DNA of 64,000 bases from an uncultured Actinomycetota bacterium (GCA_964392345.1 CAYMPQ010000001.1:5114-69113), one strand, 5' to 3'; counted from the stretch's first letter, positions 32,163 to 53,632 are shown. Made by a program: numbers and translations. Notes: a model not told the origin generated them from the letters alone.

Positions 32163-32464
32163 AAACCTCCTCCGTGCTAAAATTTGATTATACAAAAAAT
32201 TACTGCTTCCAGTAGCAGCAAAAATTTATTTATTTGTTATTTGCCATATTATAACATAGTAATAGCAAATTGTTTTACTAAAAAAACTTGTCGGCCAAAT
32301 AAAAATTTTTTTTGGAAAAACATGGAAAGTATAGTATAATCAGCCGTAATATCTAAACTTGTGTTTAGATATTTATTAAAATTAAACTTAGATATATCAT
32401 TAAGGAATTAATATAAAGTAAAGCATAAGACAATTTTTGTAAAAAATAGTGAAAGGAAGTGAAG

Positions 32465-32737
32465 ATGAACAAGACAGAGCTGGTAGAAAAGGTTAGCAGT
32501 AAGGCAGGACTTACAAAGAAAGATGCTGCTTGTGCTATCGACACATTAGTAGATGTTATCACTACTACAATTAAGAAGGGCGACAAGGTTGCATTAGTAG
32601 GTTTTGGTACTTTCCAGGCAGTGCAAAGAAAAGCAAGAACAGGATTAAACCCTCAGACAGGAAAAACTATCCAGATTCCAGCAAGAAAAGTTCCCAAGTT
32701 TAAACCGGGCAAGGTACTAAAGGAAGCAGTTAACTAA
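32465..32737 (+). CDS. hup: HU-family nucleoid-associated DNA-binding protein
   Basis: MNKTELVEKV...GFGTFQAVQRKARTGLNPQTGKTIQIPARKVPKFKPGK is near-canonical HU; RBS aaggaag. Confidence 0.9.
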   Translation: MNKTELVEKVSSKAGLTKKDAACAIDTLVDVITTTIKKGDKVALVGFGTFQAVQRKARTGLNPQTGKTIQIPARKVPKFKPGKVLKEAVN

Positions 32738-32765
32738 GAATAAATATTTATGATTGATTAATTAT

Positions 32766-32795
32766 AAGAGGGCCAATCAAATGATTGGTCCTCTT
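32766..32795 (+). terminator. Hairpin downstream of hup (aagagggccaatc / aaat / gattggtcctctt) followed by a T-containing tract
   Basis: 13-bp inverted repeat with one G.U position read directly. Confidence 0.45.
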
Positions 32796-32984
32796 ATCTT
32801 TACAAGCAGGCCTCCTTGCGCAGGCAGTATTGTAGCTATTATGCAAATTTTTAGTCGTATTCATGAAAAAATCAGCAAATATTAGACAAATATTTTTAAA
32901 TATGTTAGCATTCAATACTAATCATACATAGATTGTGATTGATGTTTTTTGAAAATTAAATATAACTATAAAGCCTGCGATCAG

Positions 32985-33297
32985 AAATAGTAAGCACTAA
33001 GCAGCATACAGAGAGCCGCTGATGGTGAGAATGCGGCTGCAAGGCTGGTGACCGAATGGCTCTGTGAGGCTTCTGGCTCAAATCATATACCCGAAAAGTA
33101 AGCAGGAGAGAGTAAGCCAGAACGGGTTCCTCCGTTACCAAGGGATAGGATATTATAGTGTATCCGAGATAGTATGAGTGCACAGCGAATACAAGCGTTA
33201 CTGAATTTGCTGTGAAATAGAGTGGCACCGCGGAGTTTAACCTCTCGTCTCTATATAAATTATTTTATGTAGGGATTATGAGAGGTTTTTTGTTTTA
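32985..33297 (+). promoter_or_regulatory. T-box riboswitch leader with apparent Trp (UGG) specifier, antiterminator T-box sequence and terminator plus U-tract
   Basis: aaatAGAGTGGCACCGCGGag matches the T-box consensus AGGGUGGNACCGCG (1 mismatch); GA-rich stem I; candidate specifier loop GAAUGGC; terminator cctctc...gagagg followed by ttttttgtttt; downstream gene is a Trp synthase beta homolog. Confidence 0.6.
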
Positions 33298-33472
33298 TAT
33301 GGGTTAATACGCGTGGGAGCGGGCAGCCAATATATAATTTTTTAATAAGGAGGTGGTACAAAAATAATTACATTTACATATAGTCAAAGAAATGCCAGAA
33401 ATGGCTAAGAACAGATGAAGAGAAATTAAAAATGCTTTTCTAAACAAGAAAGCTAAGAGAAAGGAAAATAAA

Positions 33473-34834
33473 ATGGACAAAAGAACAAAGTTTGTGCTGG
33501 ATGAGGAGGAGATGCCAAAGCAGTGGTACAATATCCAGGCAGATTTGCCAGAGCCTCTGCCGCCAGTGCTGCATCCGGCTACAGGGAAACCAATAACTCC
33601 GGATGATCTTGCTCCACTGTTTCCCATGGAACTTATTAAGCAGGAAGTGAGTACCGAACGATGGATTGAAATTCCTGAAGAGGTAAGAGATATTTACAGG
33701 CTATGGAGGCCTACTACTTTGTTCAGGGCGCATAGATTAGAAAAAGCGCTTGATACTCCGGCTAAGATTTTCTATAAGTATGAAGGATCAAGCCCTCCCG
33801 GGAGCCATAAGCCCAATACTGCTGTAGCTCAGGCTTATTACAATAAAAAAGAGGGCATCACTCGTATAACTACAGAAACCGGGGCTGGACAATGGGGAAG
33901 TGCCCTGGCATTTGGAGGTGCTTGTTTTGGTATAGAAATCAAAGTTTATATGGTATCAATTAGTTATCAGCAGAAACCTTACAGGCGTGTGATGATGGAA
34001 GTATGGGGTGCAAAATGTGTCCCAAGCCCAAGCAAGGATACAAAAGCAGGGCGAGCTATGCTGGCAGAAGACCCTAATTGCCCCGGCAGTCTGGGCCTTG
34101 CCATCAGCGAGGCTGTAGAAGATGCAGTTTCCCGTGATGATACTCATTATTCACTGGGTAGCGTGCTTAACCATGTTTTGCTGCATCAGACAGTAAATGG
34201 CCTGGAAACAAAGGAATTAATGGAAAAGGCAGATGTTTACCCGGATATTATTGTCGGCTGTGTTGGCGGAGGTTCAAACTTTGCAGGACTCTTTCTGCCT
34301 TTTGTTAAGGACAAAATTGATGGGGCAAAACCTAACTTGCGTATAATCAATGTAGAGCCTATGTCTGCACCAACTTTAACCAAAGGACCTTATGCCTATG
34401 ATTTTGGTGATAAAGCAGGGCTGACACCGCTGATTAAGATGTTTACCCTGGGGCATGATTTTATGCCACCACCAATTCACGCAGGAGGCCTTCGCTATCA
34501 TGGAATGGCGCCTATTATCTGCCATCTGGCTAATCTGGGCTTTGTTGAAGCAAGAGCCGAGCACCAGCTTGGAACTTTTGAAGCCGGGATAACTTTTGCC
34601 CGAAGTGAAGGTATTATAAGTGCGCCTGAAACAGATCATGCAATAAAGGCTGGTATTGATGAGGCTTTAAAGTGCAAGGAGACAGGAGAGGCAAAGATTA
34701 TTCTTATAGCTCATAGCGGGCATGGGCATGTTGACATGGCTGCCTATGATGCATATTTGGCAGGCAAACTAAAAGATTATGAGTATCCTGAGGAGAAAGT
34801 TAAGGAAGCATTAGAAAAGCTGCCGAAAGTTTAG
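33473..34834 (+). CDS. trpB2: Tryptophan synthase beta chain homolog, TrpB2 type (long, stand-alone PLP enzyme)
   Basis: 453 aa (TrpB2 length); PLP-binding GSHK lysine context; glycine loop GGGSNFAG; no trpA nearby. Confidence 0.8.
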
Positions 34835-34859
34835 CTGCTAAATAAGTTTGAATTATGTT

Positions 34860-34898
34860 GAGTGGCCTGCAAATAAGTTATTTATTTGCAGGCCACTC
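34860..34898 (+). terminator. Strong 17-bp perfect hairpin (gagtggcctgcaaataa / gtta / ttatttgcaggccactc) just after the trpB2 stop; no U-tract
   Basis: Perfect inverted repeat read directly; may be a terminator, RNA stability element or processing site. Confidence 0.4.
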
Positions 34899-35386
34899 GT
34901 GCTGGACAACATTAGGCAGAAATTAATCACCCTAAATAAATCTTCTAAAAAATACCACTATGTAAGCACACTGGAAGTTTTGCTTGATTTTTTTTAAATT
35001 AGCATATATCATAAACCATATAATTTTTTATTTTTTATAATTAATGTAATGGTGAGTTTTTCTTCTTGTTATCCATGTTCCAAATTCTTTAAAGAAATGG
35101 TGATATAGTTAATTGCTTTATATAAATTTGCTCAGAGTTAATAAACCCAAAAATATCTAAAAATCCTTATAATTTTTTTACTTGAAGGCCATATACAACT
35201 TACCCAAAAGTTTATTTTAATAAAAATTTTATAGCTATGTATTTTTAGATAGATATGTCGAGGGATATGAAATTATTTGTATGTATGGCTAACCTAAAAC
35301 ATGTGGAAAACAAAAGGATCGAGCAGCCGGAGAGTGTTGGGCTGGCCAGCGTTAATTAAGCTTTAGTATAAAGGGAGGAGAAATAG

Positions 35387-36841
35387 TTGGTTGAAGAAAT
35401 TAAAAATATAAACGAAGCGAATCTTAAAAAAAAGTTATTGCCGGAACTGCGTGAAATTGCCAGGCAGTTAAATATTTCTGGAGTGCCAAGATTTAAAAAG
35501 GAAGATTTAATAAAAAGGATATTAGAGGTGTTATCAATGAGAGGTGTAAAAGAGACAGCGGGTAGTGAGGTTATAGATAGAGAGGAAACGAAAGAAGAAA
35601 TAGAGGAAGTGAAAGAAGAAATAGAGGAAGAGGTAGAAGCGGAAGAGGCGAAGGGAGCAATAAAAGCTAGAAAAAAACCACCTGGCATGAGGGAGGAGCA
35701 CGAAGAGAAAAGGAAAGGGATACTGGATATACTGGCAGATGGCTATGGTTTTTTAAGGACAAATGGATATTTGCCGGGACCAAACGATATATATGTATCT
35801 CAATCTCAAATAAGGAGATTCCATCTGAGGCAGGGAGATGAAGTGTATGGCCAGGTTAGGTCTCCAAAGGATAATGAAAAATACAATGCTTTGCTTAGAA
35901 TTGAAAAGGTAAATGATTCTGATCCGGAATCTATAAGGAAAAGAAAGCCTTTTCCGACGCTGACTCCTATTTATCCTATAGAGAGGTTAAGGCTTGAGAC
36001 AAAGCAGGGATGTATTTCGACGCGAGTAATAGATTTAATTGCCCCAATAGGGAAAGGGCAAAGAGGTCTTATAGTGTCTCCGCCTAAAGCAGGCAAGACT
36101 ACCATACTAAAAGATTTAGCTAATAGCATCACTGCCAATAATCCTGAAGTATACATAATGGTGCTGCTTGTTGATGAAAGGCCTGAGGAAGTAACTGATA
36201 TTGAAAGATCGGTAAAAGGTGAAGTAATAAGTTCCACGTTTGATCAACCTTCAGATAATCATATCAAAGTTGCAGAATTGGTGCTGCAAAGAGCAAAGAG
36301 ACTTGTGGAACATGGAAGGGACGTTCTAATTCTTTTAGATAGCGTAACCCGCCTCGCCCGTGCATATAATTTATCTATTCCTGCCAGTGGCAGGGTTCTG
36401 TCAGGCGGAGTAGACTCAACTGCGCTGTTCCCGCCAAAGCGGTTCTTTGGAGCAGCTCGAAACATAGAAGATGGCGGTAGTCTTACGATCCTTGCTACAG
36501 CATTAGTTGAAACAGGAAGCAGGATGGACGATGTAATATTTGAAGAGTTTAAGGGTACCGGGAACATGGAACTTAAGTTGGACAGAAAATTAGCAGATAA
36601 GAGAATATTTCCTGCAGTAGATATAACAACGTCTGGAACAAGAAAAGAAGAGCTTTTGATGGATAAGGAAGAGGCAGAATCGGTATGGAAATTAAGGAGA
36701 ATTATATATGAGAAAGAACCGCAGGTAGCTTTAGAGCAATTAATTGATTATGTCAAAAAAACCAAAACCAATAGGGACTTCTTAAATGCAATAAAAGTTA
36801 GCTTGCAGAATGCAAATTCTTCTTTAAACTCCAAAATATAA
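35387..36841 (+). CDS. rho: Transcription termination factor Rho, with an acidic low-complexity insertion in the N-terminal domain; TTG start
   Basis: Rho N-terminal motif [27 protein letters not shown]; RNA-binding OB; Walker A; 484 aa; preceded by a ~500-nt leader. Confidence 0.9.
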
Positions 36842-36980
36842 ACAAGCTTCCCAAGCTTCCCGGGGACTTTTTTAAATAGAGTTTTGAAATTTAATCTGCC
36901 TTGTTTACCGATTTATATATTTATGCTAACATATGGGCTTTAAAATAAAAAAGATAATAATTTAATGAGGGTAAAAAATT

Positions 36981-37187
36981 ATGAAGAAAGACATACATCC
37001 AAAATATTATGATTGCACTGTTACATGCTCTTGCGGTGCTACTTTTAAAACTGGATCTACAGAGAAAGAGCTAAGGGTAGAAATATGCTCAAACTGCCAC
37101 CCATTTTATACAGGGAAGCAGAAGTTTATAGACTCAGGCGGAAGAGTGGAAAGATTCCAGAAAAGGCTTAAAAAAACTAAAAAATAA
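36981..37187 (+). CDS. rpmE: 50S ribosomal protein L31
   Basis: [10 protein letters not shown]...CSCG...[13 protein letters not shown] is canonical L31 (Zn-binding form). Confidence 0.9.
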
Positions 37188-37202
37188 GTAAGGGGCATGC
37201 AC

Positions 37203-37352
37203 ATGAAAATTAAATTGCTGAGATATGCAGAGAAATCAACAAATATGCTGAAACCTGTAAAAAAGATAAGCCCTGCAATCTTTGAAAAGGCAGGCAGGTA
37301 TCATGGAAGCAATCTTAAGTGTGGCAGCATGCAAAAAGTGAGTTGGCTTTGA
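37203..37352 (+). CDS. Small ORF (49 aa, basic) whose TGA stop overlaps the ATG of the downstream DUF1385 gene (TGATG)
   Basis: ATG at 37203 preceded by aagggg RBS; stop 37350-37352 overlapping the start at 37352; below the 60-aa track cutoff, so found by manual reading. Confidence 0.25.
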   Translation: MKIKLLRYAEKSTNMLKPVKKISPAIFEKAGRYHGSNLKCGSMQKVSWL

Positions 37353-38278
37353 TGACTGAAGGTAAAAATTTCCAGATAGGCGGCCAGGCAGTAATTGAAG
37401 GGGTTATGATGAAGAGCAAAAACTTCTGGTCTCTTGCAGTAAGACAGCCTGACAATAACATTTCAACAAAACTTTACAAGGGTGCTTCCATAATAAAAAA
37501 ATATCCAGTATTGGGACTTGCTTTTATAAGAGGGATAGTAATATTAATGGAAACTATGGTGATTGGATTTAAGGCACTTAGCTACTCTGTTAACGAGGCT
37601 ACTGAAGAAGAAATAAAATTTTCAAAAAAGGAGATGGCTGTTTCAATAATAATAGCAGTCTTATTTTCGGTCGGTGTTTTTTTTGTTCTTCCTACTTTGA
37701 TTGGCAGGAGCTTTAGCCACTTTTTCGCAAATTCTGTTGTATATAATTTTGTGGAAGGCCTGATAAGGATTAGCTTTTTTTTAGCGTACGTATTGCTAAT
37801 TTCGTTATTGAAAGATGTAAAAAGGCTCTTTCAATATCATGGAGCAGAGCATAAAACTATACAGGCTTATGAAAGTGGTGAAGACTTAAAGCCTGAAAAT
37901 GTTAAAAAATACAGCAGGCTTCATATGAGATGCGGGACAAGTTTTTTGCTTATCGTGATGGTTGTGTCAATTCTTGTTTTTGCGCTGCTTGGCAAACAGA
38001 CAATCATGTTGAGAATTGTGTCTCGGATACTTTTAATCCCTGTAGTTGCAGGGATATCTTATGAATTAATTAAAATTGCTGGAAAGTTCAGCAAATATAA
38101 AATTGTAAATATTATATTTTATCCCGGTCTCCTGCTGCAAAAAATTACTACAAGGGAGCCTGATGATTCTCAAATCGAGGTAGGAATTAAAGCATTTAAC
38201 AAAGTGCTTGAGGCAGAGGGAAGGTTAGCAGCAGAAAAGGATGAAACAGACGAAAATCTAAAGGCAGGGGAAAACTAA
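37352..38278 (+). CDS. DUF1385-family membrane protein (the conserved gene found between rpmE and prfA in many Firmicutes)
   Basis: MTEGKNFQIGGQAVIEGVMM N-terminus typical of DUF1385; several TM helices; conserved genomic context. Confidence 0.7.
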   Translation: MTEGKNFQIGGQAVIEGVMMKSKNFWSLAVRQPDNNISTKLYKGASIIKKYPVLGLAFIRGIVILMETMVIGFKALSYSVNEATEEEIKFSKKEMAVSIIIAVLFSVGVFFVLPTLIGRSFSHFFANSVVYNFVEGLIRISFFLAYVLLISLLKDVKRLFQYHGAEHKTIQAYESGEDLKPENVKKYSRLHMRCGTSFLLIVMVVSILVFALLGKQTIMLRIVSRILLIPVVAGISYELIKIAGKFSKYKIVNIIFYPGLLLQKITTREPDDSQIEVGIKAFNKVLEAEGRLAAEKDETDENLKAGEN

Positions 38279-38282
38279 GATA

Positions 38283-39362
38283 ATGGCAGAGATATTGGAA
38301 AAGTTAAAAATTTATGAAAATAATTATAAAAAGTTAGTGAAAGAACTTACCAGTCCTGAAGTTTCTTCCAATCCTTTAAAAATAAAGGAGTATGGCAAAA
38401 AAATTTCTGATCTTGAGGAGATAGTAAGAATTTCTGAAAAATATAGAGAGGTTATTTCTTCAATTCATGAAGCAGAGGGAATGTTAGAAATTGAAGAAGA
38501 TGAAGAAATGAAGAAATTTCTTAAAGAGGAATTGGATAAAAATATAAAGGAAAAACAATGCTTGGAAAAGAAGATAAAAATAGCCTTAACACCCAAAGAT
38601 CCAGATGACAAAAAAAATGTTATAGTGGAGATAAGAGCGGGCGCAGGAGGTGATGAAGCTGCGATATTTGCTAAAGATTTGTACAGGCTTTATACAAAAT
38701 TTGCGGAAAGCAAAAACTGGCACCACAAAGTACTTAGCTCAAGTTCCATTGGCGCAGGAGGATTTAAGGAAATTATATTTGAAATTGAGGGAACAGATGT
38801 TTACGGAATAATGAAATATGAATCTGGGGTACACAGGGTTCAGAGGGTTCCCGCAACAGAATCGCAGGGCAGGATCCATACTTCTACTGCCACTATAGCA
38901 GTGCTGCCGGAAGCAAAAGAAGTTGAGATAAAAATAGATCCAGCAGACTTAAGAGTGGATGTGTTTAGATCAAGCGGTCCGGGTGGCCAATCTGTAAATA
39001 CTACAGATTCTGCTGTAAGAGTGACGCATGTTCCAACTGGAATAGGCGTAAGCTGCCAGGACGAGAAATCACAATTACAAAATAAAGAGAGAGCATTTAA
39101 AATCTTAAGGGCGAGGCTTAAAAAAAAAGAAGAACAGAAACAGATGGAAAAGCAGGCAAAAGATAGAAAAATGCAGATAGGAAGCGGAGATAGAAGTGAG
39201 AAAATAAGGACTTATAACTTTCCGCAGGGCAGAGTGACTGATCATAGAATTAATCTAACTTTATACAAACTTGATGAAATCATGGAAGGTAATCTGGAAG
39301 AATTGCTGGAGTCTCTGAGAAGAGCAGACGAGGAAAAGAAAATGGAAAAGATAGGAGTTTAA
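38283..39362 (+). CDS. prfA: Peptide chain release factor 1
   Basis: GGQ motif SGPGGQSVNTT, PxT-type region, 359 aa; followed by prmC. Confidence 0.95.
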   Translation: MAEILEKLKIYENNYKKLVKELTSPEVSSNPLKIKEYGKKISDLEEIVRISEKYREVISSIHEAEGMLEIEEDEEMKKFLKEELDKNIKEKQCLEKKIKIALTPKDPDDKKNVIVEIRAGAGGDEAAIFAKDLYRLYTKFAESKNWHHKVLSSSSIGAGGFKEIIFEIEGTDVYGIMKYESGVHRVQRVPATESQGRIHTSTATIAVLPEAKEVEIKIDPADLRVDVFRSSGPGGQSVNTTDSAVRVTHVPTGIGVSCQDEKSQLQNKERAFKILRARLKKKEEQKQMEKQAKDRKMQIGSGDRSEKIRTYNFPQGRVTDHRINLTLYKLDEIMEGNLEELLESLRRADEEKKMEKIGV

Positions 39363-39368
39363 TTATAT

Positions 39369-40298
39369 TTGCAAGTCTGGAACGTAAAAAAAATTTTAGA
39401 TTGGACCATAAATTTTTTTAAAGCTAAGAATATACCCCAGCCACGATTATCATCAGAACTTCTGCTTAGCGCAGTTCTTAATCTTTCGCGGATGCAGCTT
39501 TACCTAAAATATGATTATGTTTTAACCCAGCAAGAACTAAAAGAATATAAAAAATTTATCATTAGAAGACTTGAGTTTGTCCCAATTCAGTACATCTTGG
39601 GAGAAGCATATTTTAGAAATATAAAATTATATGTAGATAAAAATGTACTGATACCGCGCCCTGAAACTGAATTATTGGTTGACAGGGCCCTGTGCTGCAT
39701 TAAAGAAATTCACAGTGATAAAAAGTTTGTTAATGTTTTAGAAATTGGAGTTGGAAGCGGGGCAATTTCCATAAGCATGGCTTCTGAAATTGATACTATA
39801 CTGGAAGATAGCGAGGGAGACCTATCCTGGCATTTAGTAGCAACAGACAAAAGCAGCAGCGCCCTCAAGGTGGCAATGGAAAATGCAAAAAATATTCTTG
39901 GCAGCAATAAGTTGGATAATATAAAATTTATAGAGTGCGACATAATTCCAGAAAATGATGCGGAATTTCTCAAAAAGTATAAAAAAAACATAAATCTAAT
40001 AATTTCAAATCCTCCTTATATCAAAGAAAAAGATTACCAGAAACTTCCAAGAGAGATAATAGAATATGAACCAAGAGTTTCTCTTCTTGCCGGGGAAAGC
40101 GGCCTTGAAGTATACGAAAAAATTTTTTCCAAAATAAAACCTTTTATGTCACCTGATTTGTGCTATATCGTATTTGAAACTGATCCTAAAATAAGCAGTT
40201 CTTTAAAAAAGCTTGCGGAGGAGCAGGTTGATGTTAAAAGAATAGAAATAGAAAAAGACTACAATCAAAGAGATCGTGTCCTAACCATAAAAGTGTAA
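39369..40298 (+). CDS. prmC: Release factor glutamine N5-methyltransferase PrmC/HemK
   Basis: SAM motif LEIGVGSGAIS; catalytic NPPY; position immediately after prfA. Confidence 0.85.
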   Translation: MQVWNVKKILDWTINFFKAKNIPQPRLSSELLLSAVLNLSRMQLYLKYDYVLTQQELKEYKKFIIRRLEFVPIQYILGEAYFRNIKLYVDKNVLIPRPETELLVDRALCCIKEIHSDKKFVNVLEIGVGSGAISISMASEIDTILEDSEGDLSWHLVATDKSSSALKVAMENAKNILGSNKLDNIKFIECDIIPENDAEFLKKYKKNINLIISNPPYIKEKDYQKLPREIIEYEPRVSLLAGESGLEVYEKIFSKIKPFMSPDLCYIVFETDPKISSSLKKLAEEQVDVKRIEIEKDYNQRDRVLTIKV

Positions 40299-41780: not shown

Positions 41781-43058
41781 TCAAATGTCAGTATAAACCG
41801 GGAAGTCACTTACAAGTTTCTTGACTTTTTTGCGTACATCATCTAGTTTTGTCTTATTTTCCCTGTTTTTTAGTGTGTAAGAAATTAACTCTCCAATTTT
41901 ATACATTTCTTCTGTTCCCATACCCTGAGTAGTAACCGCAGGTGTTCCTATTCTTATTCCACTTGTTAGATCCGGGTTAAGCTTGTCGTATGGAATAACA
42001 TTTTTATTCAGTATTATTCCCACAGACGACAAAACATTTTGAGCTTCCATGCCAGTTATACCCAACTCCGTGAGGTCAATTAAAAAAAGATGGTTGTCTG
42101 TATCGCCTGAAACAATTCTAAACCCTTCGTCTTTTAAGAATGAGCACATAGCTTTTGAATTTTCTATTATTCTCCTGCTGTATTCCTTAAAGGAATCTTT
42201 CATTGCCTCCCTGAATGCGACAGCTTTTGCAGCAATTATATGCATGAGCGGACCGCCCTGGATTCCCGGGAATACAGACTTGTTTACCAGCCCGGAATAT
42301 TTTTTATCTGCTAAAATTAATCCGCCTCTTGGCCCTCTTATGGTCTTGTGTGTGGTAGCAGTTGTAAAATCCGCAACTCCAACAGAAGTGGGATGGCAGC
42401 CGCCTACTATAAGGCCCGCAATATGTGCAATATCAGCCATAAGGTATGCTCCAACTTCATCAGCTATTTCCCTGAATTTGTTAAAATCAATTATTCTTGA
42501 ATAAGAACTTGCACCGGCAATTATAAGTTTTGGCTGAACACGTTTTGCTAATTTTCTTACATTTTCATAATCAATTTGTTCAGTTTCAGGATCCACATTG
42601 TAGGTATGAATTTCAAAATATTTACCGGAGAGGTTTTGCACGTGCCCGTGGGACAGGTGTCCTCCATCTCTAAGGTTCATGCTGAGTACCCTGTCGTGAG
42701 GGTTTAACACTGCCAAAAAAATAGCTGTATTTGCCTGAACACCGCTGTGCGGCTGAACATTGCTGTAATTTGAACCAAATAATTTATTGGCTCTATTTAT
42801 AGCAAGTTCTTCAATTTCATCAATATGCTCACAACCCCCATAATATCTGTTGCCCGGATAACCTTCAGCATATTTATTTGTCAGCACCGACCCCATAGTT
42901 TTTATTACTTCTTTTGATGTAAAATTCTCAGAGGCTATCAGCACTAACTGGCTTTTCTGTCTTGCAAGCTCTTTTTCTATGATATTTCTTACCTCGGTAT
43001 CGGTGTTTTTGCTTAAAGTATGATTTTCATGTTTCTTTTTGTTATTATCTTTTTTCAC
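41781..43058 (-). CDS. glyA: Serine hydroxymethyltransferase
   Basis: PLP lysine context TTTTHKTIRGPRGG, 425 aa, canonical SHMT N-terminal region. Confidence 0.95.
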   Translation of the reverse strand: MKKDNNKKKHENHTLSKNTDTEVRNIIEKELARQKSQLVLIASENFTSKEVIKTMGSVLTNKYAEGYPGNRYYGGCEHIDEIEELAINRANKLFGSNYSNVQPHSGVQANTAIFLAVLNPHDRVLSMNLRDGGHLSHGHVQNLSGKYFEIHTYNVDPETEQIDYENVRKLAKRVQPKLIIAGASSYSRIIDFNKFREIADEVGAYLMADIAHIAGLIVGGCHPTSVGVADFTTATTHKTIRGPRGGLILADKKYSGLVNKSVFPGIQGGPLMHIIAAKAVAFREAMKDSFKEYSRRIIENSKAMCSFLKDEGFRIVSGDTDNHLFLIDLTELGITGMEAQNVLSSVGIILNKNVIPYDKLNPDLTSGIRIGTPAVTTQGMGTEEMYKIGELISYTLKNRENKTKLDDVRKKVKKLVSDFPVYTDI

Positions 43059-43509
43059 AGGTTTTGTTCCTTTCTTCTATAGCCATTATTTTTTTAACTC
43101 TTCTCACGTGGCGTTTCTCACTGCTTTCAGGAGTACGGATAAAGACTTTTACTATTTTAATACATTCTTCTTCGGATAAAAATCTTGCGCCAAGGCACAG
43201 TACATTTGCATGATTATGCTGGCGGGCCAAAAAGGCAGCTTCTGTATTCCAGCAAACGGCAGCTCTAATTCCCCTGATCTTGTTTGCTGCAAGGCTTATG
43301 CCTATTCCGGTTCCACAGATGAGTATTGCCATATCAGCTTTCTTACAGGCAACTAATTGTGCACCCTTTTCTCCATAATCTGGATAGTCAACGCTTTTTG
43401 TGCTGTTTGTCCCGACATCTATTGCAGTATGCCCAAGGGAGCTAACTAACTCAATTATTTTGGATTTGTGGTTATATCCTGCATGGTCCGATCCTACCGA
43501 TATTTTCAA
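43045..43509 (-). CDS. rpiB: Ribose-5-phosphate isomerase B (RpiB/LacAB family)
   Basis: MKISVGSDHAGY start and CGTGIG motif; 154 aa. Confidence 0.85.
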   Translation of the reverse strand: MKISVGSDHAGYNHKSKIIELVSSLGHTAIDVGTNSTKSVDYPDYGEKGAQLVACKKADMAILICGTGIGISLAANKIRGIRAAVCWNTEAAFLARQHNHANVLCLGARFLSEEECIKIVKVFIRTPESSEKRHVRRVKKIMAIEERNKTCEKR

Positions 43510-43660
43510 ACTTGCCTTCCTTTGAAGATGTAATGATTATTCTATTTTTATATCTTCAGTATTATATTCTAATTAAAAAGATAGTCAAAGATAATAACTA
43601 TATTTTTTAGAAATAACTATGTCAATATTCAGCGATCATGTCACCTGAGAGGTGATAGTT

Positions 43661-44329
43661 TTATTCATGGGAAATGTCACCTTTTATATTTAAAATTTCC
43701 TGTATCTTGCTGTGCTTTATTTTACCTTCCCTGATAATAACAGGATTTATGCCTGTAGTATCAATAATTGTGGACTCAGTTCCTGCAAGCACATTCTGGC
43801 AGCTAACTATTAAATCAGCATTTGTTCTAATCTTAACGGGGATGCCATCAATTGTTACAGGGTCTGCGCCCTGCCCTGAAATACTAGCGCTTGTTGAAAT
43901 AATTGGGCCGCTTATGTCTATAACCTGCCTTATAAATTTTAGGCCCGCCCTCCTTATGGCAATTTTTGTGCTCCTGCTTGTGATAAATGAATTTAAAGAT
44001 TTATTTTTTTCAAAAATTATCGTAAGAGGGGACGGATTTTCTGTATCCCAGTAACAGTCAATCAAGGTTTTTGCTTGCGGGCTTATATTTTCTACCAGGC
44101 TATTTAAAGTTGAAAGTTTTGAAATCAAGACAATAAAAGGGAGGCTTGCATCCCTTTTTTTAATTTCATATACTTTTTGAAGAGCTTTTTTATTATTGTA
44201 TGCACAGCTTATTCCATAGATTGTTGCTGTTGGCAGGATAACTATCTTTCCATTTAATATAGCTGAAGCTATATCTTCTATAGTTTTTAAATTGACTTTA
44301 TCCGGATTGTTAATTTTTATTGTTTTCAT
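43661..44329 (-). CDS. tsaC: L-threonylcarbamoyladenylate synthase (TsaC/YrdC/Sua5 family, YrdC-domain only)
   Basis: YrdC motifs ILPTATIYGISC, KKRDASLPF and IISTSASISG; conserved position upstream of rpiB-glyA as in Bacillus ywlC. Confidence 0.8.
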   Translation of the reverse strand: MKTIKINNPDKVNLKTIEDIASAILNGKIVILPTATIYGISCAYNNKKALQKVYEIKKRDASLPFIVLISKLSTLNSLVENISPQAKTLIDCYWDTENPSPLTIIFEKNKSLNSFITSRSTKIAIRRAGLKFIRQVIDISGPIISTSASISGQGADPVTIDGIPVKIRTNADLIVSCQNVLAGTESTIIDTTGINPVIIREGKIKHSKIQEILNIKGDISHE

Positions 44330-44645
44330 GAAAAAGTAAAGGTAATGCTTGGGAAAAATTTCGGTATTTTGTCTTGTATAGATAATTTTATCATAATTAA
44401 ATTTTAACTATTCGTTAGTTAAATTGCAAAGAGCGTGTTCAAAAGGACTATTGCAAGCGCAAGCAGAAATATTTTTTGCTTCAGAATAAAATTATTGATA
44501 ATATTAAACCATCTTTACTTACAGGTTTTGGAAAAGTTGGAAGATTATGAAGCGGTTGTTAAATTGGGAGTAGTAAAAAATAGATGGGATTTATGATTTA
44601 GATAAAAACTGTGGCTGGCTTTAATTGTAATACATATAAATTTTA

Positions 44646-45107
44646 ATGGTTATGAAGGATAAACGCCCTACCTGGGATGAATATTTTGCAGCTATAGCAA
44701 GGCAGGTCTCTACCCGTGCAACCTGTCTGAGGAGAAAAGTCGGGGCGGTAATCGTAAAGGATAAAAGAATACTTGCCACAGGCTATAATGGCGCTCCTAT
44801 GGGGGTAAGAAGCTGCCTGGAAAGGGGAAGCTGTCTTAGAGAAAAACTTGGCGTTCCATCCGGGGAGAGGCAGGAGATTTGCCGGGGAATGCATGCAGAA
44901 CAGAATGCTATAATTCAAGCTGCCTACCATGGGGTCCGGATAAGAGATAGTGTTATCTATGTTACAAATCAGCCATGTATTCTTTGCGCAAAAATGATTA
45001 TAAATAGTGGAATTAGAAAAATATATTACCTGGAAGAATACCCTGACCCTCTGGCGGTAGAGATACTTGATGAAGGAAAGGTAGAGTTAGTCAAACTAAA
45101 TTTTTAA
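44646..45107 (+). CDS. dCMP/CMP deaminase (ComEB-like zinc deaminase)
   Basis: HAEQNAI and PCILCAKMI zinc-binding motifs; 153 aa. Confidence 0.8.
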
Positions 45108-45115
45108 AAGAAACC

Positions 45116-45736
45116 TTAGTGGCCCCTTATAATATCTTTGATTTTCATCAACCTTACAATACTTGAACGCTCTGTTTCATCAAGTTTCATTGTGATATAT
45201 TTTATGGATTCTGTCAGGTTTGGAATAAGCTTGTATTCAAGGGAATTAACTCTTCTTCTTGTCTCTTCAATTTCATCAGCCATTAACTGAACGGATTTTT
45301 CCTTTTCGGCAAGATTAAAAAGGGATTCAATAAATTTGTCAAATTTAATCAGGGCAGCGTCCATTCCACTGGAAGTATTAAGATATCCATAAGGAATGAT
45401 ATTCCCTTCCACCTCTTTTTCAAACAGGGGAACACGCACACTCATAAGATTTTTCTTCTTTACTGAAACAGAGATTTTTTTTGTTGGCAGCAGCAGCGCT
45501 TCTTCGGCCTGAGACGGCCCCATTTTGGCACTGGCAAGAATGAATTCAAAAAGTATTGACTGGAACTTTCTTTCAATGGAAAGTCTTAAGTTTTTTACCT
45601 CGTCAATAATTGCCAGAAGCTGGCTCATCAATTCATCCTGTTTGTCTTTTAAAAGTTTGTGTCCTCTCTGTGCAAGCTTTAGCCTCCGTTTTAACCGGAG
45701 TAGCTCCATCCTTGTTGCGCTAATATTTTCTATCAT
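45116..45736 (-). CDS. atpD: V/A-type ATP synthase subunit D
   Basis: 206 aa coiled-coil protein, position after subunit B; typical V-type D N-terminus. Confidence 0.85.
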
Positions 45737-47139
45737 TTAACAGCTGCGTCCTCTTTCTTTTTTTTGTATTGTTCCATATATTTGTCAAGATATTCGTCCC
45801 TGATTCTCTTTAGTTCTTCTCTTGGGAACACTGATATCAATTTCCACCCAAGATCCAGAGTTTCACCGATGGTTCTATTTTCATATTCATTCTGAGATAT
45901 ATATTCCTTTTCAAAATTTTCAGCAAATTTAAAATAAATTTTATCCATATCTGACAGCGCAGCTTCGCCTAAGATAACCGCAAGTTCCTGCACTTCTTTG
46001 CCCTTCGCATATGCAGCATAAAGCTGGTTAAACATATCGGCATGGTCCTCTCTTGTTTTTCCCTCTCCAATACCCTTATCCTTTAGCCTTGAAAGCGAGG
46101 GAAGAGCATCCACTGGAGGAGATATTTTCTTTTTGTAGAGAGATCTTGAGAGCATTATCTGCCCTTCTGTTATATATCCAGTAAGATCAGGAATTGGGTG
46201 AGTCTTATCATCCTCAGGCATTGTAAGTATTGGTATAAGCGTAATTGAACCTTTTTTTCCTTTTATCTTTCCGGCTCTTTCGTATATTGTAGAGAGGTCT
46301 GTATATAAATAACCAGGATAGCCTCTTCTTCCCGGGACTTCCTTCCGTGCAGCAGAAATCTCTTTTAATGCCTCACAATAATTGGTCATATCTGTAAGAA
46401 TTACAAGAACATGCATATCTTTTTCAAACGCAAGGTATTCTGCACAGGTCAGCCCAACTCTTGGGGTAGCAATTCTTTCAATTGCAGGGTCATCTGCAAG
46501 ATTTAATATAAGTACCGATCTGCTTAATGCTCCTGTTTTTTTCAAATCATTTATAAAATACTGCGATTCGTCAAATGTTATGCCCATTGCAATAAACACA
46601 ACTGCAAATTCTTCCTTCTCTCCCAAAACGGTTGATTGTCTTGCAATCTGTGCTGCCAATTTATTGTGGGGAAGCCCTGACCCTGAAAATATTGGAAGTT
46701 TCTGGCCGCGGACCAATGTATTTAAACCGTCTATTACCGATATTCCTGTTTGAATAAATTCATCAGGATAATCTCTTGCAAATGGATTTATTGGGGCACC
46801 ATTTATGTCAGCTCCCTTTTCAGGTATTATTCTATCGTTTTCTGTTTTTGGTTTTCCAAGTCCTGTAAAAACTTTTCCTAATATGTCAGGTGAAAGGTAC
46901 ATGTGGATTCCTTTGCCAAGAAACCTGACTTTTGTATTTTCAGCATCAATCCCGGCTGTTCCCTCAAAAACCTGAACAAGGGCTTTGTCTTTATGAACTT
47001 CAAGCACCTTCCCATTTCGCCTGCTGCCATCGGTAAGCATAATTTCAACAAGTTCCTCATACTTAACACCTTCAACACCTTCTATGAGCATCAGGGGCCC
47101 TGTAATATTTGCGATACCCTTGTATTCTTTTAACATCAT
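45733..47139 (-). CDS. atpB: V/A-type ATP synthase subunit B (regulatory, non-catalytic)
   Basis: 468 aa; A/B fold without a complete P-loop; canonical V-type B N-terminus. Confidence 0.9.
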
Positions 47140-48900
47140 TTACTCCTCTATTAATGATGAGATTTCTTTATTGATGTCTTCTTTGATTTCATCAATTTTA
47201 TCTATCTCTGTATTCTTAATGTATCTCATTCTTGCTATCTTATTTTTTACTTTCATGGTTTCAATCAAATTAATATCTGCTCCCATCTGGATGTATTCTT
47301 TAGCCTGATTATAGAAATAATTAATTATACTTATTATCTTATACTGTTTTTCAATTGGCGAATAAGTATCTATCTCGTGGAATGCATTTTGATGAAGAAA
47401 ATCTTCTCTTATCATTCTGGCAACAAGAAGCACCAGTCTGTCAGAGCCTGACAGAGCATCAATACCAACAAGACGGACTATTTCTTCAAGCTCTGATTCT
47501 TCCTGAAGCAGTCTCATTGCTTCTGCCTGAAGGTCAAAATAATCATCTGCAATATTTTTTTTCACATATTCTTTTATATTCTCATTGTAAAGAGAGTATG
47601 AATTTAGCCATGATATCGCCGGGAAATGCCTGCTGTATGCCAGATTTGCCTCAAGCGACCAAAACACTTTTACAACTCTTAGTGTTGCCTGTACAACAGG
47701 GTCCGAGAGGTCCCCGCCCGGAGGTGATACTGCACCAATAACAGAAAGTGCGCCAAACCGGTCTTTTTTTTGTGACAGGCATCTGACTCTGCCGGATCTC
47801 TCATAAAATGACGCTATTTTTGAACCTAAGTATGCAGGGTACCCTTCCTCGCCCGGCATTTCTTCAAGTCTGCCGGAAATTTCTCTCATTGCTTCGGCCC
47901 ATCTTGAAGTTGAATCTGCCATTAGCGCTACAGAGTAGCCCATGTCCCTGAAGTACTCTGCTATTGTTATCCCTGTGTAAACAGATGCCTCTCTGGCTGC
48001 AACCGGCATATTTGATGTGTTGGCAATTAAGACTGTTCTTTCCATTAGAGGCTTGCCTGATTTTGGGTCAATAAGCTTTGGAAATTCAAGAAGTACATCT
48101 GTCATTTCATTTCCTCGCTCCCCACATCCTATGTAGACAACAATCTCAGCGTTTGCCCATTTTGCCAACTGATGCTGTATGACTGTTTTGCCTGAACCAA
48201 ATGGACCCGGAACGCAAGCTGTTCCGCCATTTGCAATTGGGAAGAACATATCAATAACTCTTTGTCCTGTGATAAGCGGTTCATTGGGAGTAATCTTTTC
48301 AAGAAACGGTCTCGGCTTTCTTACGGGCCATTTCTGCATCATTGTGATACCTGTATCGCCATTTTTAGTTTTTATTACGGCAATAGTTTCTTCTAAAGTA
48401 AAGTTTCCATCTTTTATTGTCTGTATCTCGCCGCTTAATCTAGGAGGTACCATTATGTAATGTTTTATGATACTTGTTTCAGCAACAACCCCAAGATAAT
48501 CACCGCTTTCCACTAAATCACCTTTTTTAGCAATTGGTTCAAATTTCCATTTTTTTTCTCTATCAAGCGCTGACACATGCACGCCTCTTGTGATAAAGTT
48601 TCCTGTTTTGCCATATATTATGTCAAGGGGCCTTTGTGTCCCATCATAGATTGATTCAATAAGTCCGGGGCCCAGCTCAACAGTAAGAGGTTCGTTTGTT
48701 ACATATACCGGTTCCCCGACTCCTACGCCTGCAGTCTCTTCGTAAACCTGTACGGAAGCAATGCTGCCATTTAATTCAATGATTTCACCCATAAGCCTTT
48801 TTTCAGATACGTAAACTACATCAAACATTCTTGACCCTGCCATATTCTCAGCTGCCACAAGCGGGCCTGCCACTTTAATGATTTTACCGATTTTTTCCAT
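47140..48900 (-). CDS. atpA: V/A-type ATP synthase catalytic subunit A
   Basis: 586 aa with Walker [10 protein letters not shown] and the non-homologous insert typical of V/A-type A subunits. Confidence 0.9.
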
Positions 48901-48913
48901 ATATTTTCTCCTA

Positions 48914-49234
48914 TTATTGCTCAGTTATAACATCCACGCCGACAGCTTTTATTATCGCATGCCTGAGTCTCTGTATTGCATAATCATTTCTTTTGCCCAG
49001 ACCGGGGATAACTACTATCGAAGGCAGAAATTTATCTGAATATTCTTTAATAATAAAGTCAAGTTTGACTGCAATCGTCTCTGTTACAAAAATAATGCCA
49101 TATTCTTCTGCTGCAAGATGTTTTATCTTTACTGCTGCTTCCTCTGCTTCACTGACTGGAAAAACATCAACTCCAATTGCCTTGAATATGAGCATAATAT
49201 CATTTTCACCAATTGCTGCGATTTTTGTCTTCAT
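48914..49234 (-). CDS. atpF: V/A-type ATP synthase subunit F
   Basis: 106 aa, [25 protein letters not shown] typical; operon position. Confidence 0.8.
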
Positions 49235-50261
49235 CTAACAATAAAACCTCGTGTCTTATTTTACTTCTGTCAATATCATACAGGATGCCTGTAAATACAA
49301 TACTTAAGTTTTTTAACTCTATCCTTTTTTTAATGAAAAAATCAACAATTTTTTCAAGATTTGATACAGTATATTTTACTGGATCAAAAAAATAAATGTA
49401 AAACAGTTCCTCACTTTTTTCAAAGGAATAAACTTCATCTGTAGCCTCATGCGGCAGTCCGGGCGCTTGCTTTACCAGCGGAGCATATCTTGTTTTGCTT
49501 ATCTGCTGTATAAAATATTCAAGGTTCTCATTCTCAAAATTTTTTAAAAATTTTATATCCAAAAACCCATTTTTATGCAGAAACAGGTCAAAATCAATTT
49601 TCTCGCCGGAAAACTTATTTCTGTAGATGTTTTTTATATTGAACATATCTATTATATGCTTTAAAAAGTCTTTTACCATGCTGCTCTTTATGGCAGCAAT
49701 TAAGCTGTACAACTTTTCCAAAAAAAATAATTCAAGTTTCAACTCTGCAGTTCTATGGTTTTTTTCCGTGATGCCGAGCATTGCTGCATACTGCAAAATA
49801 CTGCCGGTGTATAAATCAATATTTTCATGGCTCCCAGGATCCATAGCCCTTTTTAGTTGATTGTAGGAGTAAGAGACAGGGATGAAAAGTTTTTCCATGT
49901 CTCTGCTTAGGAATACAGATTTCATCATAAGCTTTATATTGTGCAGGTCCTCTTTAAGTGTTAGCAAATTAATAATAATCTGGTGTTCTGTTTTTAATCT
50001 ATCCTTTAGAAAACTAACCATGCTTTTTAGTTCAGAGGTTGCAACATTTTCAAAATTATAATTTACACCAGCACCAGTATCGGTAAGGTACTTTGAATAA
50101 TAAGTTTCATGCAGCATTCTAAGGAATTCATTTGCACTCTTTACGCCTACCATCCTTTTAATCTTCTGTTCTTCTATAAATTCTTTTTCTCTTGCTTTTA
50201 GCTCTGCGCATGCAAAAAGGTAGAAACTGTCATCGTTAATTGTGTAATCTGTTAGTGCCAA
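49206..50261 (-). CDS. atpC: V/A-type ATP synthase subunit C (d-like)
   Basis: 351 aa helical protein in the conserved position between E and F. Confidence 0.75.
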   Translation of the reverse strand: MALTDYTINDDSFYLFACAELKAREKEFIEEQKIKRMVGVKSANEFLRMLHETYYSKYLTDTGAGVNYNFENVATSELKSMVSFLKDRLKTEHQIIINLLTLKEDLHNIKLMMKSVFLSRDMEKLFIPVSYSYNQLKRAMDPGSHENIDLYTGSILQYAAMLGITEKNHRTAELKLELFFLEKLYSLIAAIKSSMVKDFLKHIIDMFNIKNIYRNKFSGEKIDFDLFLHKNGFLDIKFLKNFENENLEYFIQQISKTRYAPLVKQAPGLPHEATDEVYSFEKSEELFYIYFFDPVKYTVSNLEKIVDFFIKKRIELKNLSIVFTGILYDIDRSKIRHEVLLLDEDKNRSNW

Positions 50262-50857
50262 CTATCCTCCCTGCCAAAAAGAAAGAAAGCTATTTCCATT
50301 TTAATATCATCAATTTCAGCTTCAACTAATGTCTCAGGAGAAATGCAGTACTGTGCATTTCTGTTAAATATCTTAAGCCCTGTTTCAAACTCATCTCTGC
50401 TGTTTGATTTTTTTAAATGCACTTTCTCTAAAATAGACTGTATTGTTTCATCATCAATGCGTTTTTCATTTCTGCCGATCAGGTATGTTCCTTCCCGGAT
50501 GTCTGAACTGGCGAGACTCTTTTTTATAAATTTTATATAATCTTCTTTTCCCATTTCTGCGAGCTTATTTTTTGCCTTTTCTGTAATCCTGTCAATGACT
50601 TCAAGTTTATAGAGAAGTATTTTTTGCCTGAATTCTGTTTTTGCTTTTAAAATTTCCAGATCGTAAACCTCTCTGTACTTTTCACTGGCTTTTTGCTTCC
50701 CTTCATCAAGAAGTTTCTTTCTTCTGTTTTCTGTTTCTTTCAGCACTGCCAGAGCTCTTTCCCTGCCGCTATTTAAAATTTTTTCCCTTTCCAGGGCTGC
50801 GTCATCTAGAATCTTTTTTGAGACATTGTCTATGCCTGCAATCATATTTTCACCCAT
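50252..50857 (-). CDS. atpE: V/A-type ATP synthase subunit E
   Basis: 201 aa, N-terminal coiled coil rich in K/E/A, operon position. Confidence 0.8.
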   Translation of the reverse strand: MGENMIAGIDNVSKKILDDAALEREKILNSGRERALAVLKETENRRKKLLDEGKQKASEKYREVYDLEILKAKTEFRQKILLYKLEVIDRITEKAKNKLAEMGKEDYIKFIKKSLASSDIREGTYLIGRNEKRIDDETIQSILEKVHLKKSNSRDEFETGLKIFNRNAQYCISPETLVEAEIDDIKMEIAFFLFGREDSWH

Positions 50858-51321
50858 TAAAATTGTATGGAATTAATAAGAAAGAATGTAATAAGAAGTC
50901 CGAGTACCGCATAGGTTTCAACCATTGCAGCAAATATAACTCCCTTCATAACCTGGGTTGCCTGTTTTGCAACAAGGCTCACACCTGCTGCACAAACTTT
51001 TCCCTGATGTATTCCTGATGCCAGACCTGTAAGCGCAATTGGCAGTGCTGCAAAAAATAATTGCAGTCCCTGGTCAAGGCTTGTCACCTGACTAATTTTT
51101 CCAATAATTAAGAAAGCAGCAACAAAACCATAAAACCCCTGTGTTCCCGGAAGCACAACAAGTAGAAACAAGCTGCCGAATTTTGATGGATCCTCAGACA
51201 GCACGCCTGCTGCGGCTCTTCCAGAGTAGCCAATACCTATAATGGAACCAATGCTTGCGAGAGCGACTGCTATGCCTGCGCCAAATATTGCTGTTGCTGC
51301 AGCGAGTGATACGTTATCCAT
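50857..51321 (-). CDS. atpK: V/A-type ATP synthase proteolipid subunit K (c-ring)
   Basis: 154 aa, four hydrophobic helices (duplicated hairpin), G/A-rich helices, conserved carboxylate in the last hairpin. Confidence 0.85.
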   Translation of the reverse strand: MDNVSLAAATAIFGAGIAVALASIGSIIGIGYSGRAAAGVLSEDPSKFGSLFLLVVLPGTQGFYGFVAAFLIIGKISQVTSLDQGLQLFFAALPIALTGLASGIHQGKVCAAGVSLVAKQATQVMKGVIFAAMVETYAVLGLLITFFLINSIQF

Positions 51322-51335
51322 TTTTCCTCCTGTTG

Positions 51336-53321: not shown

Positions 53322-53632
53322 CAGTTAGAAATCCTCTGGACAATTTTATTTACTGCTTCCTCTTCCTTGTACGAAGCAATTTTTTTTATGTCACTTAATT
53401 CTTTGTCAAAATCTTCTTTAAGTACTTCAATTTCTTTTTTTGCATCAGCTTTTGCTTTAGTTTCGTATTTACTGATCATATTGCCAATTTCTTTTTTTGT
53501 TTCTTCTAAGATTTCCTTGCTTTTAGAGTAAGCTTTTTCAACAATTTCTGCAGATTCTTTCTTGGAAAGGTTAATTATCTCTTTTGCCTTTTCTTCAGAT
53601 TCTTTAATTTTCTTAATAATGTTGTCAACCAT
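53321..53632 (-). CDS. atpG: V/A-type ATP synthase subunit G/H (peripheral stalk)
   Basis: 103 aa, K/E-rich predicted coiled coil, first gene of the operon. Confidence 0.6.
   Translation of the reverse strand: MVDNIIKKIKESEEKAKEIINLSKKESAEIVEKAYSKSKEILEETKKEIGNMISKYETKAKADAKKEIEVLKEDFDKELSDIKKIASYKEEEAVNKIVQRISN

Follow-up and report, generated by a model that had tools for sequence, protein, structure and literature searches.

A T-box on a "trpB-like" gene was listed by Wels et al. (2008; PMC2494555) in Dehalococcoides CBDB1 and D. ethenogenes 195. T-boxes that sense tRNA-Trp are commonplace on the trp operons of Bacillota, and Trp is among the most frequent specifiers (PMC12452182, PMC7778990). 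Here we describe a locus of the Dehalococcoides kind in a 64,000-nucleotide stretch of DNA from an uncultured Actinomycetota bacterium (GCA_964392345.1, CAYMPQ010000001.1:5114-69113; "the window" means this whole stretch). An initial annotation proposed that a T-box with a Trp specifier controls a stand-alone trpB2 gene near the middle of the window. According to our analysis, the stand-alone trpB2 of this unusual host lineage has a Trp T-box attenuator that is ordinary and well formed apart from one small oddity, which is the cytosine at position 33060 (C33060). Because of the precedent from Wels et al., the coupling of T-box and trpB2 is already published, and the window provides a new example rather than a new mechanism.

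As in Dehalococcoides, the window has a Trp-related T-box directly before a TrpB2-type gene that lies away from trpA. It differs in its host, an Actinomycetota-like metagenome-assembled genome (MAG) with 37% guanine plus cytosine (GC); in having C instead of a purine after the specifier codon; and in the distance from the end of the T-box model to the start codon, which is 218 nucleotides (nt) versus 53–166 nt in most Dehalococcoidia. The T-boxes of the Lactococcus lactis trp operon and of trpE in the Bacillus cereus group are of the same class, with a UGG specifier, the same terminator/antiterminator logic, and sensing of tRNA-Trp to raise the supply of tryptophan (PMC12452182, PMC2494555). 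However, those T-boxes are single or (often) tandem and control the whole of trpEGDCFBA, whereas the window has a single T-box and one salvage-type gene. The T-boxes on actinobacterial ileS genes belong to the same RNA family and probably to the same phylum as the window, but they have no terminator, they work by sequestering the Shine-Dalgarno sequence, and the tRNA that they sense is tRNA-Ile (PMC1262725); in the window, Stem I is complete and there is an intrinsic terminator. As for the protein, the TrpB2 (TrpB2_o type) of Thermotoga maritima, Sulfolobus solfataricus, and Thermococcus kodakarensis are of the same family, are also encoded outside the trp operon, and have been proposed to salvage indole, but the literature that we found describes no T-box or other RNA control for them.

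Scanning all 64 kb against Rfam at the gathering thresholds gave a single match, which was to the T-box leader family (RF00230). The match scored 109.8 bits, above the gathering score of 93 (E = 2.2e-23), and it covers model positions 1–219, which is the full length. The covariance model thus bears out the T-box that was initially annotated, although the annotated start (32985) falls 17 nt downstream of the start of the model match (32968). The T-box sequence, the GAAUGGC loop, the terminator hairpin with its U-tract, and the open reading frame (ORF) of 453 amino acids were all found where they had been placed. The near-consensus T-box stretch is AGAGUGGCACCGCGG (33219–33233). The GA/K-turn at the base of Stem I, the two halves of the S-turn loop (AGUA ... 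GAA), and the distal AG bulge and loop all align to RF00230 (Table 1). Furthermore, RNAalifold recovered the Stem I helices de novo from 30 Stem I segments, with compensatory changes in 18 of the 20 pairs.

Table 1. Features of the T-box leader, the trpB2 gene, and their flanks (window coordinates).
Feature	Position	Strand	Basis
Candidate sigma-70-type promoter: -35 TTGTGA (32933–32938), 17-nt spacer, -10 TTAAAT (32956–32961)	32933–32961	+	sequence inference
T-box leader, Stem I through antiterminator	32968–33255	+	Rfam RF00230
Stem I	32974–33069	+	covariance-model alignment; RNAalifold on 30 sequences
Stem I base pairs, CC with GG	32974–32975 with 33068–33069	+	covariance-model alignment
GA/K-turn region	32976–32981 and 33065–33067	+	covariance-model alignment
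Helix under specifier loop, CAGA with UCUG	32982–32985 with 33061–33064	+	covariance-model alignment
Specifier loop halves, AAUAGUA and GAAUGGC	32986–32992 and 33054–33060	+	covariance-model alignment
AG bulge, AGAGA	33010–33014	+	covariance-model alignment
Distal loop	33020–33032	+	covariance-model alignment
Specifier codon UGG (Trp)	33057–33059	+	invariant in 30/30 trpB2 T-boxes
Stem II	33072–33121	+	covariance-model alignment
Stem IIA/B hairpin	33123–33134	+	covariance-model alignment
F-box, CCGUUA	33132–33137	+	covariance-model alignment
Stem III, CACAGCG paired with UGCUGUG	33181–33214	+	covariance-model alignment
Antiterminator with T-box sequence AGAGUGGCACCGCG (33219–33232)	33219–33252	+	covariance-model alignment; fold
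7-nt bulge UGGCACC (UGGC part, 33223–33226)	33223–33229	+	
Intrinsic terminator: hairpin (33239–33287), then U-run UUUUUUGUUUU (33286–33296)	33239–33296	+	
A-rich spacer	33297–33460	+	no conserved element detected
Shine-Dalgarno AAGGA, 7 nt before ATG	33461–33465	+	sequence
trpB2, 453-amino-acid TrpB2-type pyridoxal phosphate (PLP) enzyme	33473–34834	+	NF009057, TIGR01415, Pfam PALP
Perfect 17-bp hairpin, 26 nt after the trpB2 stop, no U-run	34860–34898	+	read from sequence

The specifier maps to UGG, which is a codon for Trp, as the initial annotation had proposed from GAAUGGC. All 30 of the homologous leaders keep UGG, and the loop reads (G/U)AA(A)UGG-N in every trpB2 leader with an intact Stem I. 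The helix that closes the loop is CAGA/UCUG in the window and is CAGG/CCUG, CAAG/CUUG, CGGG/CCCG, or UGGG/CCCA elsewhere. In the 30-sequence alignment, columns 17/108 are A-U in 22 leaders and G-C in 8; columns 18/107 are G-C in 20, A-U in 8, and G-U in 2; and columns 19/106 are G-C in 29 and A-U in the window. Because the closing helix covaries, the boundary of the loop and the frame of UGG are fixed, and UGG is therefore nucleotides 2–4 counting from the loop's 3' end, which is the canonical position of the specifier (TBDB, PMC7778990). On its 3' side, the loop is 7 nt long in the window versus 8 nt in the Rfam consensus, and the Atribacterota leaders have an 8-nt form, (G/U)AA-A-UGG-A, with UGG in the canonical frame. 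The other expected contact with the tRNA is the T-box bulge, which begins with UGGC in the window and with UGGC or UGGU in all of the trpB2 relatives. According to TBDB (PMC7778990), Trp T-boxes carry C or U at the bulge position that faces the G73 discriminator, so the UGGC of the window would fit tRNA-Trp.

Downstream of Stem III, the leader can form two structures. When 33215–33256 is folded alone, the minimum-energy fold is a classical bulged antiterminator (-8.9 kcal/mol); when the downstream arm is included (33215–33297), the terminator wins (-26.9 kcal/mol). A 96-nt stretch that contains this hairpin folds at -31.2 kcal/mol, with z = -5.15 relative to dinucleotide shuffles. Both structures use 33239–33252, which is the 3' strand of the antiterminator and the 5' arm of the terminator, so the two folds are mutually exclusive. 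This is the ordinary design of transcription attenuation. In such a design, the antiterminator can be held only by the binding of a tRNA.

The identification of the regulated gene as a TrpB2-type tryptophan synthase was upheld at the equivalog level. The protein matches two TrpB2 models over their full length (NF009057, 732 bits with a cutoff of 366; TIGR01415, 646 bits with a cutoff of 519), while its score for the canonical TrpB model TIGR00263 (134 bits) is below the cutoff of 392. The closest solved chains are TrpB2 structures (6hul_B, 4qys_B, and 6hte_B, at 381–430 bits), while TrpB1 chains score about 120 bits. The motif GSHKPN contains the PLP lysine (K113), and the Pfam PALP domain spans residues 77–416. 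The gene does stand alone: no Trp_syntA domain or other trp gene was found among the window's ORFs that we scanned with Pfam. The initial annotation also suggested that TrpB2 joins free indole with serine. The indole salvage part of this agrees with the literature, as TrpB2 is described as having high affinity for indole and, in T. kodakarensis, as taking part in its salvage (cited in PMC11917138 and PMC11085991). The serine part can be refined, as O-phospho-L-serine is reported to be preferred over L-serine (Busch 2014, as cited in PMC11917138).

Scanning a genome collection with the TrpB2 protein gave 80 trpB2 loci, and we identified their upstream leaders with a hidden Markov model (HMM) built from 12 Rfam-confirmed leaders. 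A T-box lies directly upstream of trpB2 in 32 of the 80 loci: 27 of 41 evaluable loci from Chloroflexota, 4 of 4 from Atribacterota, 1 of 1 from Actinomycetota, and 0 of 24 from other phyla. The Chloroflexota T-boxes all have UGG and share with the window the 7-nt form of the loop side (GAAUGGN). Among close relatives, the T-box remains attached to trpB2 even though the upstream gene varies (HU or phosphoglycerate mutase). The T-box serves as a dependable label of function: that the UGG specifier is kept in three phyla indicates that out-of-operon TrpB2 is expressed when the charging of tRNA-Trp falls, and it supports a role for TrpB2 in supplying tryptophan by indole salvage. The main value of our analysis is this comparative evidence that the coupling of a Trp T-box to trpB2 is widespread. 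For annotation, it also firmly identifies one regulatory RNA, together with its target gene, in a low-GC, Actinomycetota-like genome from an uncultured organism.

We put a probability of roughly 85% on the reading that this is a canonical class-I (transcriptional) T-box riboswitch that is specific for tRNA-Trp and controls a monocistronic trpB2. Under this mechanism, transcription would start near 32968, and Stem I would bind tRNA-Trp, with UGG paired to the CCA anticodon and with additional contacts from the platform formed by the distal AG bulge and loop. When no amino acid is attached to the tRNA, the GCCA at its 3' end (G73-C74-C75-A76) would pair with UGGC in the bulge and stabilize the weak antiterminator, and RNA polymerase would read through into trpB2. 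If tRNA-Trp is charged, the much stronger terminator would form and transcription would stop. The product of trpB2 would make L-tryptophan from free indole and O-phospho-L-serine or L-serine. A drop in the charging of tRNA-Trp would thereby switch on indole salvage. Of this scheme, our analysis shows the RNA elements, the identity of the codon, the mutual exclusion of the two folds, the protein family, and the recurrence of the arrangement in three phyla, whereas the promoter, the response to the tRNA, and the substrates of the enzyme are inferred.

Several observations weigh against this reading. C33060 stands where a conserved purine normally follows the specifier codon; this purine is said to pair with U33 of the tRNA (PMC2879506), and the cytosine could weaken tRNA binding. 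Among the trpB2 leaders, 26 relatives have A or G directly after UGG and 3 (from Dehalococcoidia) have U; C is seen only in the window and in L082, a relative with 97% identity. A post-codon purine is a frequent but non-absolute feature, and C33060 does not exclude the leader from the T-box family. Folding the leader had been suggested as a check: the minimum-energy fold of the single Stem I sequence differs from the canonical fold, which is usual for T-boxes, while the covariation in the RNAalifold analysis supports the specifier loop. The structure therefore rests on the covariance model and on covariation. Also, the window is devoid of tRNA genes, and none of the 60 related loci that we scanned for tRNAs has a gene for tRNA-Trp, so the match to the anticodon and the discriminator is a predicted one. 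Finally, 176 nt of untranslated RNA precede the start codon, and an additional promoter or control step may lie there.

That spacer is the basis for another explanation, which is that the T-box is a decaying or bypassed relic and trpB2 is transcribed mainly from a promoter within the spacer, with little influence from tRNA-Trp. The spacer is long and unconserved and the post-codon purine has been lost, but our promoter consensus scan found no promoter-like site in 33297–33472 and all of the T-box elements are intact. The pair that closes the specifier loop has changed on both sides within the lineage and is still paired, and L082 has exactly the same 3' arm and U-run of the terminator (33256–33297; 100% identity), with the hairpin occurring in the sister group as well. 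Furthermore, relative to a sister lineage (L001 and L083–L085, whose TrpB2 proteins are 93–95% identical to the window's), the T-box is 78–80% identical, as compared to 68% for third codon positions of the gene and 46–49% for the spacer, which implies that the T-box is under purifying selection. We consider a relic to be unlikely. There is also a slight chance that the protein does not form tryptophan in vivo, and is instead a serine deaminase or another beta-replacement enzyme, so that the T-box reflects a different need. As of 2007, the physiological role of out-of-operon TrpB2 was regarded as unsettled, and a second function had been proposed (PMC1854888). The same study found that TrpB2_o has poor serine deaminase activity; tryptophan synthesis and indole salvage by TrpB2 in T. 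kodakarensis, and an O-phosphoserine-dependent tryptophan synthase activity, are reported in the literature cited above. From the side of regulation, the retention of a Trp T-box in three phyla is in its own right evidence for a product that relieves the deacylation of tRNA-Trp.

It is very unlikely that the T-box reads another tRNA. A shifted frame in GAAUGGCU would give AUG (Met) or GGC (Gly), and TBDB also weighs the -1 and +1 frames; with 7 instead of 8 nt on the 3' side of the loop and a pyrimidine after UGG, the frame would not be textbook if judged from this one sequence. But the covarying helix fixes the end of the loop (columns 19/106 are A-U here and G-C in the other 29), the 8-nt loops of Atribacterota put UGG in the canonical frame, and the base after the invariant UGG varies among A, G, U, and C, so GGC is not conserved. 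The bulge UGGC implies a G73 discriminator, which fits tRNA-Trp, and the regulated gene makes tryptophan. In bacteria, tRNA-Gly has U73 and elongator tRNA-Met has A73, neither of which fits this bulge. Given the covariation, the invariance of UGG, and the bulge, we rejected both frame-shifted specifiers. Least credible of all is a T-box of the kind known from the actinobacterial ileS leaders, which would sequester the Shine-Dalgarno sequence and so control translation rather than transcription. The relatives of release factor 1 do place the host in Actinomycetota, and the first T-boxes described from that phylum were translational (PMC1262725). Here, though, a strong hairpin and then UUUUUUGUUUU immediately follow the antiterminator, the Shine-Dalgarno sequence of trpB2 is about 165 nt further downstream and has no part in the switch, and Stem I is full-length with its distal platform.

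Turning to the history of the gene, the TrpB2 protein of the window is 83–86% identical to those of L002–L011, which are from MAGs labeled as Pirellulales, Sedimentisphaerales, Dehalococcoidia, and Deltaproteobacteria. Unlike TrpB2, release factor 1 falls to 70–79% identity in its closest other matches; its named relatives, at 70–74% identity, are all Actinomycetota MAGs, including Candidatus Hydromicrobium (class Humimicrobiia). The GC content is 36.9% for the window and 45.5% for the trpB2 gene. The similarity of TrpB2 across phyla and the contrast in GC content suggest lateral mobility, very strong constraint, or the mis-binning of some MAG contigs. In a neighbor-joining tree of TrpB2, which has no bootstraps and is weak evidence, the clade with the window adjoins T-box-less proteins from Planctomycetota and Deltaproteobacteria. 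On this same weak evidence, we rejected the idea that the T-box was transferred together with the gene, as its nearest neighbors in the tree lack one. The tree and the counts by phylum imply that the presence of the T-box tracks the phylum of the host and not the history of the gene.

A broader reading, which we hold only tentatively and think is less likely than not, is that trpB2 is a laterally mobile indole-scavenging gene of anaerobic sediment bacteria that has come under tRNA-Trp control wherever the phylum makes use of T-boxes (Chloroflexota, Atribacterota, and low-GC, Humimicrobiia-like Actinomycetota) and in none of the others. If so, a Trp T-box would mark TrpB2 as the source of tryptophan for indole-dependent, and possibly trp-pathway-deficient, members of the community. 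The window would then also be a rare case from Actinomycetota in which a biosynthetic gene has a T-box of the classical terminator type, and this T-box would work despite the pyrimidine that follows the codon. We also noticed a locus (L087:1-3365) in which trpB2, whose product is 88% identical to the window's, comes immediately behind trpB1-trpA and points the same way; this subtype of TrpB2 is thus found both inside and outside of trp clusters.

The trpB2 leaders of Atribacterota have an unusual arrangement. In four of them (L013:97-458, L014:2362-3000, L019:909-1562, and L022:2376-3000), a complete Trp T-box with its terminator is followed by a second module that lacks Stem I and consists of Stem III alone, an antiterminator with a T-box (AGGGUGGCACC...), and a separate terminator with a U-run. 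The antiterminator and terminator arms vary in a compensatory way between two subgroups (GCGGA..UCCGU versus ACGAAA..UUUCGU). It is unusual for a natural tandem to include a "discriminator-only" T-box that is Stem-I-less. All four leaders also have a short upstream ORF of 17–26 codons between the second terminator and trpB2 (L013:349-402, L014:2881-2961, L019:1440-1493, and L022:2871-2939). It has a good Shine-Dalgarno sequence and a conserved [R/N]-W-P-[P/L]...G core (e.g., MYEVIREKRWPPPGGYI), and it overlaps a GGCCCCC/GGGGG palindrome. This upstream ORF could encode a Trp-codon leader peptide or an arrest peptide and so be a third layer of control.

In the window, 176 nt separate the U-run from the ATG, which agrees with the roughly 175 nt of extra leader that was annotated. 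The T-box motif is about 240 nt from the start codon; 839 of 887 T-boxes lie within 300 nt of it (PMC2494555). The sequence from 33298 to 33472 is 45% A and 10% C, and in the sister lineage the spacer region is replaced by a 340-nt stretch. The last 20 nt, around the Shine-Dalgarno sequence and the ATG (33461–33480), are 95% identical to the sister lineage and match at 19–20 of 20 positions in all relatives. Given the Atribacterota precedent, we considered whether GGUGGUAC (33354–33361) belongs to a second, degenerate T-box. A permissive Rfam search of 32740–33520 gave no second T-box and, at E ≤ 10, only chance matches in the spacer; when the spacers of the window and of its relatives were scored with an HMM of the four second modules from Atribacterota, the result was about 0 bits. 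We rejected this candidate and also a Trp-codon leader peptide, as the mini-ORFs in the spacer have at most 10 codons and none of these are for Trp. A strong AAGGAGG (33347–33353) has no usable start codon behind it. We conclude that the spacer is unconstrained sequence with no second regulatory device.

The longer spacer of the sister lineage contains two overlapping small ORFs (L001:974-1125, L083:1764-1879, L084:724-878, and L085:1764-1879). The first ends in ...RL(I/M)PLLW-stop, and its UGG overlaps the AUG of the second, which encodes a conserved, hydrophobic peptide of 30 amino acids (MV[I/V/T]ISNICS...LAGEH). Both ORFs are absent from the window and from L082.

The trpB2 gene is monocistronic and lies between the gene for HU (32459–32737), which ends with its own hairpin (32766–32795), and rho (35387–36841). 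The candidate promoter (Table 1) would set the start of transcription near where the T-box model begins, and its -10 element and 17-nt spacing are kept in all six related leaders in the alignment. The promoter consensus scan favored another site, TAGACA-17-TAGCAT (32883–32911). The 17-bp hairpin after the gene was not called by the terminator scan because it has no T-run; judging from its sequence, it is likely to be the 3' end or a stabilizer of the trpB2 transcript. It opens a 552-nt non-coding gap before rho (34835–35386) that has no match to an Rfam family; possibly, rho has a long leader here, as is used in Rho autoregulation. Two antisense ORFs (32956–33228 and 33304–33627) have no family match and were treated as spurious.

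Based on Pfam, the other genes in the window include those for sugar transport and catabolism and a 2-oxoacid dehydrogenase complex, as well as rpmE, DUF1385, prfA, prmC, glyA, an LCP gene, and a gene resembling murA. Bacillus and Clostridia have an arrangement similar to the order seen here, which is rho, rpmE (36981–37187), DUF1385, prfA, prmC ... Sua5, glyA (35387–40298 and 41781–53632). On the minus strand, a probable V-type ATPase operon (45116–53632, as judged from ORF sizes only) sits where the genomes of Bacillus and Clostridia have an F-type atp operon. This arrangement is notable because the markers in this genome point to Actinomycetota. At the other end of the window, a large same-strand cluster (232–21011) contains genes for the catabolism of sugars or inositol-like compounds, among them those for LacI and ROK regulators, an ABC sugar transporter with two MalK-type ATPases, four xylose-isomerase-like TIM-barrel proteins, GFO/IDH/MocA oxidoreductases, and two FGGY kinases.

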